Shown here piece by piece: positions 5,486 through 56,365 of a stretch of DNA of 64,000 nt. The stretch covers positions 36,362 to 100,361 of the forward strand of contig CAZASJ010000002.1 in assembly GCA_964487735.1 (NCBI GenBank), read 5' to 3'. Every line of letters begins with the position of its first letter. The stretch's first letter is position 1. The stretch is from an uncultured Bacteroidales bacterium (lineage in GTDB: Bacteria; Bacteroidota; Bacteroidia; Bacteroidales; B18-G4). The notes beneath the pieces were generated by a model. That model searched no databases, was not told where the DNA came from, and was given only the letters and a program-made list of their open reading frames with translations. Position numbers and translations under genes: made by a program.

Positions 5486-5532
5486 TGTTTTTCTTGTTTC
5501 TTGTTATAGGTTGCTGGTTATCTATTTCTTAA

Positions 5533-5570
5533 TTCGTATTTCGTATTTCGTAGTTCGTAATTCATAGTTC
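5533..5570. repeat. Tandem heptanucleotide array, about 5.4 units (TTCGTAT TTCGTAT TTCGTAG TTCGTAA TTCATAG TTC)
   Basis: Read directly. 7-nt periodicity between the stop of the 5570-6319 gene and the start (5485) of the next rhomboid gene. Confidence 0.85.
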
Positions 5571-6319
5571 TAATACACCCCTTTTCTTTTCCAATAAACA
5601 ATCAGGAAATATCCAAATACCATCCCGCCCAGGTGAGCAAAATGGGCAATGCCGTCCTGGGTGCCGGTAACACCGAAATAAAGTTCCAGAACACCATATA
5701 TCATAACAAAATACTTGGCCCTGACGGGTATAGCAAAGAACACATAGATCATGGTATTCGGGAACATCATCCCAAAGGCAAGCAATATTCCAAAAACAGC
5801 TCCGGAAGCACCTACTGTGGGAGTATTGACAGTCTGGTAAAGTGATACCATATTGTCATATCCTTCCTGGGTCAGGCCTGCAATATTTGCCCAGAGTTCA
5901 GGAGCCGTATTGTAAACATGGCTGACTTGTTCGGGTGTAAGCAAGGCTTCCACAGATTGTATCCTGAAAAAGGCCACAATTAATTGTACAAGCCCGGCCC
6001 CAATGCCGGTAATCATATAAAAAGTGAGAAATCGCTTCGGTCCCCAAGCCTGTTCAAGGATACTTCCAAACATCCACAAAGCAAACATATTGAACAGGAG
6101 ATGGTAGAAACCACCGTGCATGAACATATATGAAACAAGCTGCCAGGATTGGAAATATTGAGACGTGAAAAAGTGAAGGCCCAGGATCTGGTACAGATTT
6201 GCCTGTTCCTTGAAAAGTTCTGTAATCAATAAAACCAAGGCATTGATAATAATGAGGTTAAGCACCACGGGTGGCAATCCCATGAAACCTCTTCTGCCGC
6301 TTTGTTGAAATCCACTCAT
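5570..6319 (-). CDS. Rhomboid family intramembrane serine protease
   Basis: 249 aa. Contains FMHGGFYHLLFNM, GASGAVFGILLA (GxSG) and AHLGGMVFG. Confidence 0.85.
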   Translation of the reverse strand: MSGFQQSGRRGFMGLPPVVLNLIIINALVLLITELFKEQANLYQILGLHFFTSQYFQSWQLVSYMFMHGGFYHLLFNMFALWMFGSILEQAWGPKRFLTFYMITGIGAGLVQLIVAFFRIQSVEALLTPEQVSHVYNTAPELWANIAGLTQEGYDNMVSLYQTVNTPTVGASGAVFGILLAFGMMFPNTMIYVFFAIPVRAKYFVMIYGVLELYFGVTGTQDGIAHFAHLGGMVFGYFLIVYWKRKGVY

Positions 6320-23250: not shown

Positions 23251-23336
23251 TCCCGACAAAACCCAAATGGTTGACTTGGTATTTTGTCGAGGATCCACGA
23301 AAAACAATGAATTCAAAGAATTCTGGTTTTTCGGGA
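23251..23336. mobile_element. MITE-like non-coding hairpin element, copy 1 (86 bp)
   Basis: Termini TCCCGAcAAAACC ... GGTTTTTCGGGA are inverted repeats (6 bp perfect, 12 of 13 extended). A perfect 7-bp direct repeat TGTTGAG abuts both ends. Two internal hairpins: CGACAAAA...TTTTGTCG and CGAAAAAC...GTTTTTCG. The right-hand ~55 nt closely match 51412-51462. Confidence 0.45.
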
Positions 23337-23457
23337 TGTTGAGTGGATTTCTGTATGATCAAATGCTCAATAACGAATACATTGTACCACATTCACTGCT
23401 ATGAACAATATTACTGAAAAACTTTGTAGGGGGAGAAAAAAAAAGGAAATAAAAAAA

Positions 23458-23493
23458 GGACTGTGCAAAAAGCAGACGGGAAAAGCACAGTCC
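23458..23493 (-). terminator. Rho-independent terminator oriented for the minus strand
   Basis: Stem AGGACTGTGC / GCACAGTCCT (10 bp) with a 16-nt loop. On the minus strand it is followed by TTTTTTTATTTCCTTTTTTTTT. Confidence 0.65.
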
Positions 23494-23682
23494 TTAACCA
23501 AATCTTATAACTTAATCAAAAAGCTGATGTAAAAATACAATCATTGAATCACATAAATCAAATATTCAACCTCACAAATACTCTACATACATTTCTGAAC
23601 AAAATTGAATTCTAAAATGTTACTTATATATATTTAATAATGAGCTGTTTATAAAACAGTAAGTAGTAACACGTAATTTATG

Positions 23683-30306: not shown

Positions 30307-30370
30307 ATGAGAATTCTACTGTTTTTATAATCAATATTAGAGGTGGTAAAGATAGGGAATTCTTCCTTTA

Positions 30371-30405
30371 TGAATTATGAATAATGGATTATGGATTATG
30401 GATGG
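30371..30405. repeat. Tandem heptanucleotide array, 5 units (TGAATTA TGAATAA TGGATTA TGGATTA TGGATGG)
   Basis: Read directly. Lies 65-99 nt upstream of the ugd start codon. Confidence 0.85.
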
Positions 30406-30467
30406 GGTGCGAGATACCAGCTACCCGCTGCGGAAGATAAATCAATCTGCCTTTTTGCCAGGGTGTT

Positions 30468-47559: not shown

Positions 47560-47567
47560 TACCTTTG
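47560..47567 (+). promoter_or_regulatory. Candidate -7 box TACCTTTG driving the riboswitch leader
   Basis: Matches TAnnTTTG and ends 5 nt before the P1 helix of the riboswitch. Confidence 0.5.
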
Positions 47568-47571
47568 ACAT

Positions 47572-47762
47572 ATTCAATGGTGTGCAATACTGCCCTGCAG
47601 TAACGCCATAATAGGGAATGGGGTGTAAATCCTCAACAGTTCCCGCTGCTGTGAATCTTAAGCCTTAGGGCAAGCGTTTCGGAAATCCTTAAGCCACTGT
47701 CTGATAGTAATGATGGGAAGGCCTTCCGGAACGGAGATAAGTCAGAAGACCTGCCATTGAAT
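47572..47762 (+). promoter_or_regulatory. Cobalamin (B12) riboswitch
   Basis: The closing helix pairs TTCAATGG (47573-47580) with CCATTGAA (47754-47761). Conserved core: AATAGGGAATGGGGTGTAAATCCTCAACAGTTCCCGCTGCTGTGAA. B12 box GCCACTG at 47693-47699, then GGGAAGGC and AGTCAGAAGACCTGCC. Lies upstream of a TonB-dependent receptor. Confidence 0.9.
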
Positions 47763-47858
47763 GAAAATGAAAGGCTTTCGGGTAAAAGGCTCTTGATAAA
47801 TTTCAACGATTTATTCAAAGTTTTCTCCCTGGAAATAATCCCTTAAAAGGGTTATTTG

Positions 47859-49757
47859 ATGACGTTAAAAGGATTTATATCGATCTCGTTTGCTTTGCTG
47901 GCATGTGTTCTTGAAGCACAACATGCAAAGCCTGATACGATCATGAGCCTCGACACTGTGAATATAAGTGCAGAGCGCTATTCAGCCTATTCATCCGGAC
48001 AGAAACTGATAAGCATTAATGCAGAGGTTTTATCGGAGGATCAAAGCAATAATATTGGCGATATTCTTAATGAGCATACATCTGTATATGTACGCTCATA
48101 TGGTGGAGGTTCCATCTCAAGTATGTCGTTCAGGGGTACTTCTTCAAATCAAAGCAGTATTTTCTGGAACGGGATCAATATACGGATGCCCAGCCTGGGA
48201 AGTTCAGACCTTTCACTCATACCGGCTCCTTTTTTTGAAAATGCGTCCATCGTTTTTGGGGGCAGCAGTATCCGGTATGGCAGTGGGACGATAGGAGGGG
48301 CTGTGTTTCTTGATAATAAGGCTTCATTTGACGGCAAAACAAATGCTGCTGCAAATTTCAGAACAGGTAGCTTTGGATATATGGGAACTTCCTTGCAAGC
48401 TTCTTCATCAGGAGAAAAAATTTATGTTAAGTTGGCTTTTACTGCCAGTGAAGCGAGAAATGATTACTTATATAAAAACATAAGAGGAGAGGAGAAGAGA
48501 CTCGATAATGCAAAAGTAAGCAGCATAGGCCTGAATATCCATGCAGCAGCAAAACTGGGACCCCGGAATCAACTTGATCTGTTTTTCTGGTATCAGGAAG
48601 CTTTACGAGAGATCCCGCCAACCCTTAGCATGAGTGCAAGCGATTCATATCAGTCGGATCGTGCAGGAAGAAGCTCCATACAGTGGAAGCGATTTTTTGA
48701 TCATGGTGCCCTGTACGTTAAAACAGCATGGTTCTCAGAATATGAGAATTTTACAGATCCTTCTATTGCATTGCAATCAAGCATTAAGACCAATACCTAT
48801 TTTATTGAAACCGAATACCGGCATCAGCTTTTTAAAAATGCCAGTATGGATGCCGGGATAAGTTTTACCGGTGAAATGGCTGATATTGATGCATATGGCG
48901 GTATACAGAACAGGGATTGGATTGCTTTATTTGTAAACTACAAACAATATTTACCTAAGATCCGGTGGAACTTCGTGGCAGGCGCCCGGCAGGAGATAAG
49001 TGGAAAAACACTCTCTCCTTTTACACCATCCATTGGAATTGAAGGCCCGATCGCAGCTTTCTTATCTCAAAAATTGAGTGTTTCAAGAAACTACAGGCTT
49101 CCAAGCATGAATGAATTGTATTGGCAACCGGGAGGGAAGCCCGATATCAAACCCGAAAGCAGCTGGAATGCTGAATTCAGTTTATTAGCAGGACTATTAG
49201 AAAAACAGAACACAGGTCTGCACTTCGTGGCCACTGCATACAGTTCCTATGTATCTGACTGGATCCTTTGGTTGCCGAAAGAGAACTTCTGGACTGCCGA
49301 CAATATTAAAAATGTATGGGCCAGGGGGGTGGAATTATCAGGGGATTACGAAATCGGAAATCAGGAGAGATCATTGCAATTCGGGCTTTCATATACCTTC
49401 TCCCGGTCAACAAACGAATCTTCAGACGTAAATGGAGATTCTGAAGGAAAGCAATTGATCTATACGCCTTTGCATAATGCATCTGCCAGGCTAAAACTTG
49501 CAGTTCAAAGCTGGAAACTCATATTCATATCAAATTATTCAGGCATGAGTTATACAACAAGCGATAACCTTACTTCATTACCTGGGTACTATCTTGCTGA
49601 TATTGCCCTGCATAAGAAATTTAAAACAAGGCATATTGATATTGGACTTGTGGCAAGGATCAACAACCTCTTTAACAAGGAATATGAAGTTGTTGCATAC
49701 AGGCCCATGCCTGGTACAAATTTTAATTTTTCACTTACACTCAACTTTAATAACTAA
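47859..49757 (+). CDS. btuB: TonB-dependent receptor, probable vitamin B12 transporter (BtuB-like)
   Basis: The ORF track starts at the TTG at 47856; the ATG at 47859 is preferred. Signal peptide, then a plug domain (DTVNISAER, VYVRSYGGG, FRGTSSNQ) and a beta-barrel with aromatic-rich C-terminal strands. The B12 assignment comes from the riboswitch context. Confidence 0.8.
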   Translation: MTLKGFISISFALLACVLEAQHAKPDTIMSLDTVNISAERYSAYSSGQKLISINAEVLSEDQSNNIGDILNEHTSVYVRSYGGGSISSMSFRGTSSNQSSIFWNGINIRMPSLGSSDLSLIPAPFFENASIVFGGSSIRYGSGTIGGAVFLDNKASFDGKTNAAANFRTGSFGYMGTSLQASSSGEKIYVKLAFTASEARNDYLYKNIRGEEKRLDNAKVSSIGLNIHAAAKLGPRNQLDLFFWYQEALREIPPTLSMSASDSYQSDRAGRSSIQWKRFFDHGALYVKTAWFSEYENFTDPSIALQSSIKTNTYFIETEYRHQLFKNASMDAGISFTGEMADIDAYGGIQNRDWIALFVNYKQYLPKIRWNFVAGARQEISGKTLSPFTPSIGIEGPIAAFLSQKLSVSRNYRLPSMNELYWQPGGKPDIKPESSWNAEFSLLAGLLEKQNTGLHFVATAYSSYVSDWILWLPKENFWTADNIKNVWARGVELSGDYEIGNQERSLQFGLSYTFSRSTNESSDVNGDSEGKQLIYTPLHNASARLKLAVQSWKLIFISNYSGMSYTTSDNLTSLPGYYLADIALHKKFKTRHIDIGLVARINNLFNKEYEVVAYRPMPGTNFNFSLTLNFNN

Positions 49758-50967: not shown

Positions 50968-51381
50968 ATGAAGCATAAAATATCAAGCCTCTGGAAAGAA
51001 AACATGTCCTTTGAGGCGGAAGTAAATGGATTTAAGATCACTCTTGATGCTGACGAAGCTGTTGGCGGACAGAATCTTGGGCCCAGACCAAAGGCACTTA
51101 CACTTGTTTCCCTGGCGGGATGTACATCCATGGATGTGATCTCGATTCTCAAAAAAATGAGGGTAAATCCGGATTATTTTAATGTGGAAGTTGAAGGTGA
51201 ACTTACTGAGGAGCATCCAAAGTATTATGAGCACATTCATATTAAATATATCTTCAGGGGCAAAGACTTGCCAATGGATAAACTGGAGAAGGCGATAAAT
51301 CTTTCGCAAGACAGGTATTGTGGTGTTAGCGCCATGCTCAATAAGTCAGCACGGATCACCCACGAAATAGTAGTGGAATAA
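50968..51381 (+). CDS. OsmC family peroxiredoxin-like protein
   Basis: 137 aa. Contains GPRPKALTLVSLAGCTSMDV and YCGVSAML, the two conserved Cys. Confidence 0.88.
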   Translation: MKHKISSLWKENMSFEAEVNGFKITLDADEAVGGQNLGPRPKALTLVSLAGCTSMDVISILKKMRVNPDYFNVEVEGELTEEHPKYYEHIHIKYIFRGKDLPMDKLEKAINLSQDRYCGVSAMLNKSARITHEIVVE

Positions 51382-51390
51382 ACCATTCAG

Positions 51391-51462
51391 TCCCGATTCC
51401 TGGTCCCCGGGATCGAAGATCAACGAAAAACAATGAAATCAAGTATTTTTGGTTTTTCGGGA
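51391..51462. mobile_element. MITE-like non-coding hairpin element, copy 2 (72 bp)
   Basis: Termini TCCCGA ... TCGGGA. Flanking 7-mers are CATTCAG (51384-51390) and CATCCAG (51463-51469), 6 of 7 identical. The core TCGAAGATCAACGAAAAACAATGAAATCAAGTATTTTTGGTTTTTCGGGA aligns with 23287-23336. Confidence 0.45.
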
Positions 51463-51490
51463 CATCCAGTATCTAGTATCCAGTATCCAA
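51463..51490. repeat. Tandem heptanucleotide array, 4 units (CATCCAG TATCTAG TATCCAG TATCCAA)
   Basis: Read directly. Overlaps the last five codons and the stop codon of the NUDIX gene. Confidence 0.85.
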
Positions 51491-52117
51491 CACATCCACC
51501 ACTTCCCTTAGCATCATAGCTGTAGCACCCCAAATAATGTGGTTCTGTATATAAAAACAGGGAACGTCAATAATATTGAATTCCCTGTGGGAAATATTTC
51601 TGTTTTGCATATTCTCAGGATTTAAGAGATCATATAGTGGAATACAGAGAATTTGCGAAACCTCAGCAGGTTCAGGCTTCAGATCAGGTTTTTCATTGCA
51701 CCAGCCAACAACAGGCTTTACGATGAAATTGCTGGGAGGAATATAAACAGGAGTCATTTCTCCAAGGACCTCAACGGATTCCATCTGAATATTCGTTTCT
51801 TCTTCCGCTTCGCGTAATGCTGTGTATGTCAGGTCAGGATCACTCTTCTCAAATTGGCCTCCCGGGAATGATATCTGCCCACTGTGGACACCATCATATT
51901 CATTTCTTTTTATCAGGATCAGATGAATGTCTCCTGGATTGTCGGGGTAAAAGCAAATCAGGACCGCTGATTTCTTTGCCTTTTGATTCCATGAATAGCT
52001 CTCAATTTCTTTCCTTCTGATCTCCGGTATCATCTTCAATTGAGATTGCAGTCCGGGAAGTTTCCCTGCGAGTTTTCGTTTTAGGGATATTTTAAATTCG
52101 TTTTGCTTATCAGTCAT
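51473..52117 (-). CDS. NUDIX hydrolase (CoA pyrophosphatase-like)
   Basis: 214 aa. Nudix box GGQFEKSDPDLTYTALREAEEETNI. Confidence 0.85.
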   Translation of the reverse strand: MTDKQNEFKISLKRKLAGKLPGLQSQLKMIPEIRRKEIESYSWNQKAKKSAVLICFYPDNPGDIHLILIKRNEYDGVHSGQISFPGGQFEKSDPDLTYTALREAEEETNIQMESVEVLGEMTPVYIPPSNFIVKPVVGWCNEKPDLKPEPAEVSQILCIPLYDLLNPENMQNRNISHREFNIIDVPCFYIQNHIIWGATAMMLREVVDVLDTGY

Positions 52118-54181: not shown

Positions 54182-56365
54182 ATGACACTTCAAACGGAAG
54201 AAATAAGAGAGACAGAACTTCTCTTTAATAAGCTTAAAGATAGCTGTATAGCCTTCTGCGATGAAGATGAATTGGCCTTGATACAAAAGGCCTATGAAAT
54301 GGCTCTCAGAGGTCATGGGAATACCAGGGCGGCCAATGGACAGCTCAATGTAGTTCATTCCTTGCATATTGCCCGTTCTACAACCGAAGACATTGGCCTG
54401 GGAGCTACCTCCATTGTATCTGCATTGCTTCACGATGTTGTAAACAAAACCGAAATTACGCTGCCTGAGATCAGGGAAACGTTTGGAAGCCTGGTATCAA
54501 ATCTCATTGAGGAATATACAAAACTTTCCAATCTGAATACTAAGCGAATAGAAGTGAATTCAGTAAAGTTCAGAAACCTTTTCATGACCATTGTGGATGA
54601 TGTACGGGTTATCTTGCTTAAACTGGCTCACCGCTTGCATGACATGCGTACAATACATGATCTTCCAAAGGAAAAACAGGAGTTGTTTCTTGCTGAAACA
54701 GAACATGTATACCTGCCGATCACACACAGGCTTGGCTTGTATAAAGTAAAAACTGAACTTGAGGAAAGATTGATGCAGTATAAGCTCCCGGAGGTTTTTG
54801 CAGAACTATCAGAAAAGATAACAGTTACTGAAAGCAAACGCAAACTTTTTATCAACGATTTCATCGAACCTATCAGAAGGGAGTTGATCACCCAGGGCTT
54901 TGATTGTGAAATAAAAGGAAGACCAAAATCGATCCATTCCATTTGGGATAAGATGAAGCGTCAGGATGATGATTTCGAAGAAGTTTACGATCTTTTTGCA
55001 ATTCGAATCATCAGTGAAAGCAAAAAGAAGAATGAAAAAACCGATTGCTGGAGAATTTATTCCATTGTTACGAATATATATCCGCCGAACCCGAAACGAC
55101 TTCGGGATTGGATAAGTACTCCCAAGGCAAGTGGTTATGAATCGCTTCATACCACTGTTCAAGACCCCAATAAGAGATGGGTAGAAGTCCAGATCCGCAG
55201 CAGGAGAATGGACGAACTTGCTGAAAAGGGACAGGCAGCTCACTGGAGGTATAAAGGATTTGATACGGGAAAAGATGCTCAGTCTTATCTTGAACAAGTT
55301 CGTGATATCATCGAAAACCCCGGCCAGATAAATTTTGATATCCAGCAGGATAAGGCCAGATCTGCCAAAGCGCAAAAAATCTTTGTTTTTACCCCTAACG
55401 GAGATCTAAAAGAACTGCCCAACGGGGCCACAATCCTTGATTTTGCTTATGAAGTCCACACCAGGGTGGGAGACCAGTGCAATGGTGCCAGGGTAAACAA
55501 TAAAATTGTTCCTATCAGGTATGTCTTGAATAACGGTGACAAGGTTGAGATCATTACATCCAAAAACCAAAAACCCAAACTCGACTGGTTGAAGGTAGTG
55601 ATCACAACCAAGGCGAAAAACAAGATCAAACGATCCATAAAAGAACAGAAGTTTCATGAAGCCCAGGAGGGAAATGATATACTGAGAAGAAAGCTCAGGA
55701 ACTGGAAAATGACTTTCAATGACGAGAATGTGGATAAACTTGTAAAACATTATAAGTTGTCTTCTTCTCTTGATCTCTATAGCATGATTGCTTTTGAGAA
55801 GGTTGATATGAACGAGATCAGGCAATTATTACAGGATAAAACTGACCCTGATAAGGTGAAACCTGATCCTGTGCTACCTGTACCCGGCAAATTAAGCACT
55901 CATCAGGAAGATAATTTTCTTCTGATCGATAATAATCTTGATCATGTTAACTATAAACTTGCAAAATGTTGCAATCCAATTCCAGGAGATGATGTCAGCG
56001 GATTTGTAACAATAGGACATGGCATAAGCATTCATAGAAAGTCATGTCCGAACGCAAAACGTATGCTGGAAAAATATGGATACCGACACATCAATGTCGA
56101 GTGGAAGAAACCAGAAGGCGAATCTGCATTCCAAACAACCATCCGGATTACCGGAGAGGATAAGATTGGTATGCTGGGAGAAATAACAGCAGTTATCTCA
56201 GGTGATCTGAGGGTGAATATGCAATCCGTAAAAGTAGATTCAAAAAATAAAGTGTTTACAGGGCATATTAAGCTCACTGTGCGAGATTCCAGGCATTTGG
56301 ATGAATTGGTTCATAAATTATTAAAAATTAAAGGAGTTATTAAAGCAAATAGAATTGATAAATAG
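54182..56365 (+). CDS. Bifunctional (p)ppGpp synthetase/hydrolase (RelA/SpoT homolog)
   Basis: About 727 aa from the ATG at 54182. HD hydrolase domain (ALLHDVV). Synthetase region (GRPKSIHSIWDKM, YESLHTTV). TGS domain (VFTPNGDLKELPNGATILDFAY) and a C-terminal ACT-like domain. Confidence 0.92.
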   Translation: MTLQTEEIRETELLFNKLKDSCIAFCDEDELALIQKAYEMALRGHGNTRAANGQLNVVHSLHIARSTTEDIGLGATSIVSALLHDVVNKTEITLPEIRETFGSLVSNLIEEYTKLSNLNTKRIEVNSVKFRNLFMTIVDDVRVILLKLAHRLHDMRTIHDLPKEKQELFLAETEHVYLPITHRLGLYKVKTELEERLMQYKLPEVFAELSEKITVTESKRKLFINDFIEPIRRELITQGFDCEIKGRPKSIHSIWDKMKRQDDDFEEVYDLFAIRIISESKKKNEKTDCWRIYSIVTNIYPPNPKRLRDWISTPKASGYESLHTTVQDPNKRWVEVQIRSRRMDELAEKGQAAHWRYKGFDTGKDAQSYLEQVRDIIENPGQINFDIQQDKARSAKAQKIFVFTPNGDLKELPNGATILDFAYEVHTRVGDQCNGARVNNKIVPIRYVLNNGDKVEIITSKNQKPKLDWLKVVITTKAKNKIKRSIKEQKFHEAQEGNDILRRKLRNWKMTFNDENVDKLVKHYKLSSSLDLYSMIAFEKVDMNEIRQLLQDKTDPDKVKPDPVLPVPGKLSTHQEDNFLLIDNNLDHVNYKLAKCCNPIPGDDVSGFVTIGHGISIHRKSCPNAKRMLEKYGYRHINVEWKKPEGESAFQTTIRITGEDKIGMLGEITAVISGDLRVNMQSVKVDSKNKVFTGHIKLTVRDSRHLDELVHKLLKIKGVIKANRIDK

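Follow-up and report, generated by a model that had tools for sequence, protein, structure and literature searches.

A double-hairpin repeat family of Bacteroidota found in heptanucleotide arrays and tRNA D-loop sequences

We analysed a 64,000-nucleotide (nt) stretch of DNA from an uncultured Bacteroidales bacterium (NCBI GenBank assembly GCA_964487735.1, contig CAZASJ010000002.1, positions 36,362 to 100,361 of the forward strand), which is referred to here as the window. The spacer between two convergent genes of the window, which encode an OsmC-family protein and a NUDIX protein, contains a 72-nt interspersed repeat composed of two hairpins (copy 2), and another copy of 86 nt (copy 1) is located upstream of trmD. 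The two copies are members of a widespread small-repeat family of Bacteroidota that was previously unnamed. On balance, we are inclined to regard copy 2 as an eroding, non-autonomous repeat that resembles repetitive extragenic palindromic (REP) sequences and palindrome-associated transposable elements (PATEs) and that was inserted without target duplication into a heptanucleotide (heptamer) array that is present in relatives as well. The repeat family is new, as is its specificity for microsatellites and tRNA D-loops. Copy 2, its parts and its immediate flanks are as follows:

51391–51462, plus strand: element copy 2, 72 nt, a double-hairpin interspersed repeat with TCCCGA...TCGGGA termini; a decayed member of the 'TTCCCGG' left-hairpin sub-family
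51391–51419, plus strand: hairpin unit 1, the variable module, TCC-CGAT-T-CCTGG-TCC-CCGGG-ATCG-A-AGA, whose closing GGA is mutated to AGA
51417–51422, plus strand: junction of the hairpin units, AGATCA, a degenerate version of the GGATCC of the family
51420–51462, plus strand: hairpin unit 2, the conserved module, with the outer stem CGAAAAAC/GTTTTTCG intact and the inner palindrome GAAATC-AAG-TATTTT broken in 2 of 6 pairs
51384–51390, no strand assigned: left flanking 7-mer CATTCAG, a degenerate final array unit ending in the CAG-like motif that is found before the left end throughout the family
51463–51490, no strand assigned: heptanucleotide microsatellite, CATCCAG TATCTAG TATCCAG TATCCAA, which reads (GGATACT)n on the minus strand

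A reading of the window from its sequence alone had proposed that 51391–51462 is a second copy of a hairpin element with these termini, that its right half matches copy 1, and that its left third differs, as would be expected of a modular element. All three proposals were upheld. The right 50 nt of copy 2 show 86% identity to positions 23287–23336 of copy 1, whereas the left third reads CGAT-T-CCTGG-TCC-CCGGG-ATCG in copy 2 and CGACAAAA...TTTTGTCG in copy 1, and the left hairpin is exchangeable among the copies of the scanned genomes. When the window was searched with the 20-mer ACGAAAAACAATGAAATCAA, allowing up to three mismatches, only copies 1 and 2 were matched, compared with 0.01 matches expected by chance, and no copy of the element other than 23251–23336 and 51391–51462 was found in the whole 64-kb window. 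The proposed flanks, CATTCAG (51384–51390) and CATCCAG (51463–51469), match at six of seven positions, and the right flank is indeed the first unit of an array, which extends over 51463–51490 (51464–51489 with a period of 7 according to Tandem Repeats Finder). By hand count, copy 2 differs from the commonest sequence of its sub-family, TCCCGATTCCCGGTTCCCGGGATCGNGGATCCWCGAAAAACAATGAAATCGAAGATTTCTGGTTTTTCGGGA, at approximately nine of 72 positions, including the junction (AGATCA) and two inner-stem pairs, and on the strength of these differences it is probably an old, eroding copy. Copy 2 folds no better than shuffled sequence (z-scores of -0.99 and +0.56). The stem of unit 1 occurs elsewhere in the compensatory form CCTGG/CCAGG (locus L028) and in most copies as CCCGG/CCGGG.

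The extent of the family was examined by scanning public genomes, one genome per species, with the pattern CGAAAAACAA-N(8-28)-GGTTTTTCGGGA. The scan yielded at least 83 matches in at least 74 genome loci (designated below by L numbers), at least 60 of them with the exact 39-nt core found in the window. Among the matches listed, the carriers are metagenome-assembled genomes (MAGs) labelled Bacteroidales, Lentimicrobiaceae, Porphyromonadaceae, Vicingaceae and Bacteroidota, together with the isolate Draconibacterium orientale DSM 25947. Most copies come from Bacteroidales and Lentimicrobiaceae MAGs, and Draconibacterium and Vicingaceae are represented by a single genome each. Pattern matches in Firmicutes, Proteobacteria and other groups were taken as chance matches; their spacings differ, and the family features are absent. 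At least 21 copies are present in one MAG and at least 10 in another. Contigs frequently break off inside the element, which disrupts short-read assemblies, and it also gives rise to spurious open reading frames (ORFs). As a related observation, loci L016 and L089 have the unique right flank of one copy in common and differ in their left flanks, which reflects either recombination between copies or an assembly chimera formed via the 72-nt repeat. No copies were found in the plasmids, phages and viral contigs scanned, and no description of the element was found in the literature on heptanucleotide repeats, on REPs and REP-associated tyrosine transposases (RAYTs) of Bacteroidetes, or on miniature inverted-repeat transposable elements (MITEs) in tRNA D-loops. 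E-value scans of both window copies against Rfam gave chance-level matches only.

Copies of the element are mainly intergenic and consist of two abutted hairpin units of 29–47 nt, each with the structure TCC(N)CGA...TCG(N)GGA, which are joined at GGATCC; the junction reads CG-N-GGATCC-W-CG in nearly all intact copies. The right unit is the one conserved across orders; the left unit can be exchanged, the census containing many distinct left-end types, and one sub-family has a diverged duplicate of the right unit in this position. In the inner stem of hairpin 2, four of the six pairs have changed on both sides (variants GAAATC/GATTTC, GAATTC/GAATTC, AAAATC/GATTTT and GAAATT/AATTTC), values that were attained by none of 500 shuffles, and the loop and bulge positions vary freely.

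The association of the element with heptamer arrays is real and strong, and the arrays are the more general feature. A copy was scored for an array by two criteria, namely flanking 7-mers within a Hamming distance of 2 and a lag-7 autocorrelation of at least 0.5. Among the 53 copies with both flanks, 34 pass both criteria and 10 more pass one; seven or eight have tRNA-like flanks, and only one or two pass no criterion. At random non-coding positions in the same loci, both criteria are passed by 0.3% of 2658. The suggestion that the association exceeds chance is therefore well founded, and the further suggestion that the element targets heptamer arrays is consistent with the data, including the specificity of units for sub-families. 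All 26 'TTCCCGG' copies, among them copy 2 of the window and five metagenome copies, lie in YRTCNGG/YATCCAG arrays, and eight of the nine 'AAAAAATGCAA' copies have TAGGCAG-type flanks, with AACCAG flanks and no array at the ninth. The left-hairpin type TCCCGATAAAA..GCAAATC occurs with three units (TTTCAAG, TTCCTTG and TGTTGGG). The loci of this census (465 kb) contain 74 arrays of period 7, compared with zero to five for each of the other periods (4–6 and 8–12). For 34 of the 74, a strict-core element is located no more than 60 nt away, and the other 40 have none at this distance; a few variant copies turned up in these loci in a looser scan. Many unrelated units are represented among the 40 distant arrays, and other arrays of the same MAGs (GAGTTTT, TTTTCCC, GATACTT and others) have no strict-core element adjoining. 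In the window itself, four period-7 arrays were identified against zero or one for periods 5, 6 and 8–12, and period 7 is its sole over-represented tandem period.

Three window arrays without a hairpin were also recorded, one by a gene end (5490–5574, TTTCTTG/TATTTCG units), one upstream of the start of a minus-strand gene (30368–30407, TTATGGA units), and a weak one at 55556–55579 (CCAAAAA).

Comparison of the insertion sites revealed a short, strand-specific rule at the left end. On the strand of the element, the base preceding it (-1) is G in 41 of 50 non-redundant copies and T in none, and the base following it (+1) is C or T in 44 of the 50 and G in none. The left flanks end in CAG, CGG, AGG, GAG or AAG. 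Orientation relative to the heptamer strand is identical for all array copies; at the near-palindromic tRNA D-loop sites (CAG|CTG or CAG|TTG), both orientations occur, and the left flank is still CAG, TAG or CAA. A strand-specific left-end rule like that of PATEs would explain why orientation is fixed in arrays and mixed at the tRNA site. The 7-bp flanking repeat had been read as a possible target-site duplication, an interpretation that did not hold. The 7-mers on the two sides of the element differ by a mean Hamming distance of 1.21, and neighbouring units inside arrays by 1.14 and 1.5. Because insertion anywhere in a period-7 array yields matching 7-mers, the match of the flanks is not diagnostic; the apparent 7-bp repeat is the period of the array. 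'Target-site duplications' read inside tandem arrays are thus uninformative.

The copies found in tRNA sequence are free of this ambiguity. At least eight copies have the arrangement ...GCTCAG|element|YTGGTAGAGC..., contiguous with the D-arm of a neighbouring intact tRNA and with zero duplicated bases. They are linked to the following tRNAs:

L040:2481–2827, tRNA-Gly
L067:2350–2580, tRNA-Asn
L027:6046–6400, tRNA-Arg
L048:1406–1760 and L005, tRNA-Met
L036:5300–5506, tRNA-Val
L064:930–1184, tRNA-Trp
L039, tRNA-Ala

The hosts of these copies are truncated 5' tRNA pseudo-copies, with insertion in the D-loop at CTCAG|YTGG. Such pseudo-copies are stacked one or two units deep, often together with the upstream region, directly before the intact tRNA gene (Gly, Asn, Arg, Met, Val or Trp), and the duplicated unit ranges from ~38 to ~150 nt. 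One idea is that rare partial tRNA duplications are trapped in this way, as their collapse would place the element into the sole functional tRNA. A tRNA intron was considered for the D-loop copies and rejected, since an intact tRNA gene stands beside each disrupted, truncated or degenerate copy and the element occurs in both orientations. A variant copy was also observed at L048:1180–1320 (minus strand), at GCCCAG|CTGGGCC in a 3' tRNA-Met fragment downstream of the intact gene. At L039:6440–6640 (minus strand), the D-loop that contains the copy belongs to a second tRNA-Ala-like gene, and a small GIY-YIG ORF overlaps the 5' end of this gene; a similar small GIY-YIG ORF follows tRNA-Asn in L067. 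The GIY-YIG ORF adjoins these two tRNA-linked copies only and was rejected as a general partner.

Relatives of the copy 2 locus carry the array and lack the element. The two genes that border this locus are:

50968–51381, plus strand: OsmC-family gene, whose stop codon lies 9 nt before copy 2; the Pfam family OsmC is recorded on syntenic homologues
51473–52117, minus strand: NUDIX (CoA pyrophosphatase-like) gene, convergent with the OsmC gene, whose 3' end is encoded by array units

Exact-protein look-ups returned no match for OsmC and NUDIX and the same strain only for TrmD, and a metagenome scan with the NUDIX protein detected no relative, the nearest NUDIX homologues being ~67% identical. 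The NUDIX–OsmC pair, with FloA–NfeD–ClpS alongside, is syntenic in three lineages in which the NUDIX protein is only ~65% identical. The hairpin element is absent from the NUDIX–OsmC spacers of all three. These spacers (L077–L082) contain a (GGATACT/GGATTCT/AGATCCT)n array that starts within the last NUDIX codons (..VLDTG[Y/F]*), followed by a second array, (CGATATT)n. Distant relatives thus have the array at this position too, and insertion of the element between the last two units of the array is the simplest explanation. Copy 2 would then be a decaying passenger, and the heptamer array, which encodes the last NUDIX residues, is what the relatives share. A locus shared by L049 and L092 is informative as well: the element is kept in both and has decayed in one, and the adjoining array differs by two units, and therefore arrays change length beside a fixed element.

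The copy 2 array overlaps the NUDIX stop codon (51473–51475) and the last five codons (..LDTGY*), so that the C-terminal residues ..LDTGY (window 51476–51497) are encoded by heptamer units. In the NUDIX homologue P0002 (L077:2115–2165), three extra units make the ORF seven residues longer (VLDSGCWVLDTG). The microsatellite thus shapes the C-terminus of the protein.

We propose that the element would be inserted without target duplication, with its left (variable-hairpin) end directly 3' of a CAG/CGG-like motif on its own strand. Heptamer arrays, which are abundant in these genomes and change in length by themselves, would offer this motif once per unit and would for this reason be the main landing sites, and a second one would be the sequence CTCAG|YTGG in the D-loop of spare, truncated copies of tRNA genes. 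At the present locus, insertion may have taken place in the (GGATACT)n array that overlaps the NUDIX 3' end, with subsequent decay of the element, and local consequences of any kind, for example a hairpin where the two convergent transcripts end, would be incidental. Mobility would be provided in trans by a putative HUH (Y1) transposase of the IS200/IS605 or RAYT type that binds hairpins in single-stranded DNA. This mechanism was adopted as the most likely one because the element combines the absence of a duplication and a short, strand-specific target beside its left end with hairpins at both ends, and this combination is the product of single-strand HUH transposition by IS200/IS605 elements or RAYTs (PMC6006769). 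The specificity for microsatellites of given units and for D-loops likewise points to a short single-strand target rule.

PATEs, the products of the IS200/IS605 'peel and paste' pathway, are a close counterpart in anatomy, as they have end hairpins, no duplication and strand-specific insertion 3' of a short motif (PMC6006769); the element likewise has a hairpin at both ends, no terminal duplication and a left end placed 3' of a short strand-specific target. It differs in its motif, which is loose (CAG/CGG-like), whereas the PATE target is a fixed tetra- or pentanucleotide, and in having no room for a guide 5' of hairpin 1; a TnpA/TnpB partner was not found. The element also resembles REPs and the bacterial interspersed mosaic elements (BIMEs) built from them, being composed of short imperfect palindromes that are high in copy number, mostly intergenic, often dimeric and without target duplication, and it has the 20–65-nt imperfect palindrome in many intergenic copies by which these are recognized. 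In Bacteroidetes, RAYT subclasses 2.4 and 2.6 are known and are described as having 'atypical secondary structures' (PMC6006769). However, the hairpins of the element are arranged head-to-tail, as direct repeats, whereas those of REPs are inverted, and no RAYT gene linked to the element was found in the 567 kb around the copies. The strong preference for heptamer arrays and tRNA D-loops is not mentioned for REPs in the reviews consulted.

Several points weigh against the interpretation of copy 2 as a REP/PATE-like insertion. REP hairpins follow a foot rule, the tetranucleotide GTAG/GTGG (PMC6006769), but the foot of the element is TCC(N)CGA in all copies and GTAG/GTGG is absent. REPs are normally species-specific, whereas the 39-nt core spans Bacteroidales, Lentimicrobiaceae, Draconibacterium and Vicingaceae, and the fact that hairpin 2 is so highly conserved across orders could instead reflect a host function. 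A regular-expression scan for HUH...Y motifs over the same 567 kb detected no Y1/HUH-like ORF, and all-against-all clustering of the ORFs around copies gave no recurrent neighbour, only spurious ORFs reading through arrays. Hairpin 1 begins practically at the left boundary, which leaves essentially no spacer for a guide of the IS608 style, and the target motif is degenerate, (C)NRG, with CAA and TTA as exceptions. The comparison of empty sites uses distant syntenic loci rather than near-identical strains, the genome scan demanded 22 exact bases, so that the census is biased to conserved copies, and mobility is inferred from the copy number, the near-identity within genomes and the varied flanks. 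The resemblance of the heptamer unit to the left hairpin as an IS608-like guide is vague and limited to one sub-family (ATCCGG vs ATCCCGG).

MITEs transpose with a target duplication of fixed length and have ends in common with an insertion sequence (IS) of the DDE type; bacterial examples are Correia/NEMIS and BrickBuilt of Porphyromonas. The element is small, non-autonomous, multi-copy and modular, like a MITE, and has short terminal inverted repeats (TCCCGA/TCGGGA). It differs in showing no duplication at non-repetitive (tRNA) sites, and a search of the retrieved loci and of plasmids, phages and viral contigs gave no autonomous parent IS with these ends. The element was not assigned to a named family because it lacks the foot and the species specificity of REPs and the target duplication of MITEs. 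The flanking arrays, by contrast, are ordinary heptanucleotide simple-sequence repeats (SSRs). They resemble the long SSRs of Mrazek 2007, the short tandemly repeated repetitive (STRR) sequences of cyanobacteria and the TAACTGA repeats in their period of 7, their intergenic location beside start and stop codons, their many units per genome and their lack of a known origin (PMC4679880). Such arrays are abundant in several phyla and of unexplained origin (Mrazek 2007, as cited in PMC4679880), and TAACTGA repeats are found in Beggiatoaceae, Cyanobacteria and Bacteroidetes (PMC4679880). The difference is that PMC4679880 makes no mention of an embedded hairpin element, which here occupies one phase, one orientation and particular units.

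Three other explanations were weighed against a REP/PATE-like insertion. The element may be a functional structured motif under selection, such as a two-way transcript-end hairpin, an mRNA stabilizer, a processing signal or a binding site for a host protein. A host-factor binding role is possible because hairpin 2 is nearly identical across orders, which would be unusual in a REP, and the covariation of the stems, the folding of copy 1 far better than shuffles on both strands, the position of copy 2 between convergent genes, where a two-way hairpin could help, and the persistence of same-locus insertions across related species (L026/L054 and L049/L092) all fit such a role. Nevertheless, the copies show no bias in gene orientation (tandem same, 10; tandem opposite, 12; convergent, 11; divergent, 8) and occur alike in 5', 3' and tandem contexts. 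The element has no stem plus T-run signature, for which reason an intrinsic terminator was rejected, and no Rfam match was found. Relatives lack the element at both window sites, copies decay in place (copy 2 of the window and L092), and the many near-identical copies per genome and the assembly breaks are typical of repeats. We consider selection for such a function rather unlikely as the explanation, although function and mobility are compatible with each other.

Cut-and-paste transposition of a MITE with a 7-bp target-site duplication was another possibility, with the footprints of repeated insertion and excision piling up into heptamer arrays, as the sequence-only reading had suggested. 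The flanking 7-mers are indeed identical or nearly so in most array copies, L038 shows a 6/7 flank match (CAACCAG/TAACCAG) outside a clear array, the terminal inverted repeats are those expected of a MITE, and the array units follow the sub-families. On the other hand, tRNA-linked copies show no duplication of any length, and flanking 7-mers are no closer to each other than adjacent array units are. The 40 of 74 arrays without an adjoining strict-core element, with their diverse units, the element-free arrays in the NUDIX–OsmC spacer of three lineages and the change in array length beside a resident element (L049 vs L092) argue against an origin of arrays as footprints, as does the abundance of heptamer arrays in phyla where the element was not found (Mrazek 2007, as cited in PMC4679880). 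Arrays of up to ~18 units (L047) would demand as many cycles of insertion and excision at one site, and no DDE transposase with these ends was seen in the loci around copies. It is therefore unlikely that the arrays are insertion/excision footprints, and we regard the MITE explanation as a whole as very improbable. Slightly less improbable, though still a doubtful proposition, is that the element carries or seeds its own heptamers, either as terminal heptamers or as units added by an enzyme, which slippage then expands, so that arrays of the same unit without an element would be traces of former insertions. The sub-family-specific units (26/26, and 8/9 for TAGGCAG-type flanks), the constant phase and orientation in which the element lies in the array, and the recurrence of one unit at many loci per genome, beyond what slippage alone would produce, agree with this, and the age of copy 2 makes conceivable an ancestral NUDIX–OsmC insertion that was later lost in other lineages. 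However, tRNA-embedded copies come without heptamers, a single left-hairpin type (TCCCGATAAAA..GCAAATC) accompanies three different units, the same genomes contain many array types that are not associated with any element, and the array at the NUDIX site begins inside conserved codons in all lineages. The broader idea that the element is a site-specific single-strand-DNA repeat whose machinery seeds or disperses same-unit heptamer arrays and also traps partial tandem tRNA duplications is a long shot to a similar degree. If this were true, it would connect mobile hairpins with the origin of heptamer arrays, provide the first mechanistic handle on same-unit 7-nt arrays in Bacteroidota and perhaps also explain the STRR and TAACTGA arrays of other phyla.

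The other copy of the window differs from copy 2 in its state of preservation and is represented by two features:

23251–23336, plus strand: element copy 1, 86 nt, structurally intact, with another left hairpin; located 22 nt upstream of the trmD start codon
23237–23250, no strand assigned: two TGTTGAG units left of copy 1; a third unit lies on the right at 23337–23343

Copy 1 folds better than shuffles on both strands (z-scores of -3.6 and -6.3), and its terminal inverted repeats, TCCCGA/TCGGGA, extend to ~13 nt. It is identical in the metagenome contigs L001 and L002 from ENA, the latter of which terminates inside copy 1. In relatives with 85–89% TrmD identity, the element is absent from the region upstream of trmD, and this region contains no array, 9-mer arrays or other heptamers, depending on the lineage. 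Copy 1 thus looks lineage-specific and seems to sit in a hot spot of simple repeats. The 9-nt tandem arrays of these relatives are found at L085:60–130 and L087:1020–1110 (TTAGTTGAA / CTGGTTGAA), and variant elements flanked by 9-mers (ACTTTATAG) are present in L023 and L032; because of these cases, period 7 is dominant but not exclusive.

Two further non-coding features of the window were noted. A block of ~140 nt upstream of trmD (window ~23440–23600, minus strand) is strongly conserved in relatives with 85–89% TrmD identity and ends in a GC stem followed by a T-run (GGACTGTGC...GCACAGTCC TTTTTTT); in L087, the stem contains one compensatory change. No Rfam match was found for this block, which may be an unannotated small RNA gene with a terminator. 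The only Rfam match above the gathering threshold in the window is a cobalamin riboswitch (RF00174, 93.5 bits) at 47561–47772, which is located directly upstream of a 633-amino acid ORF (47856–49757) that reads like an outer-membrane receptor and is a candidate for this function.

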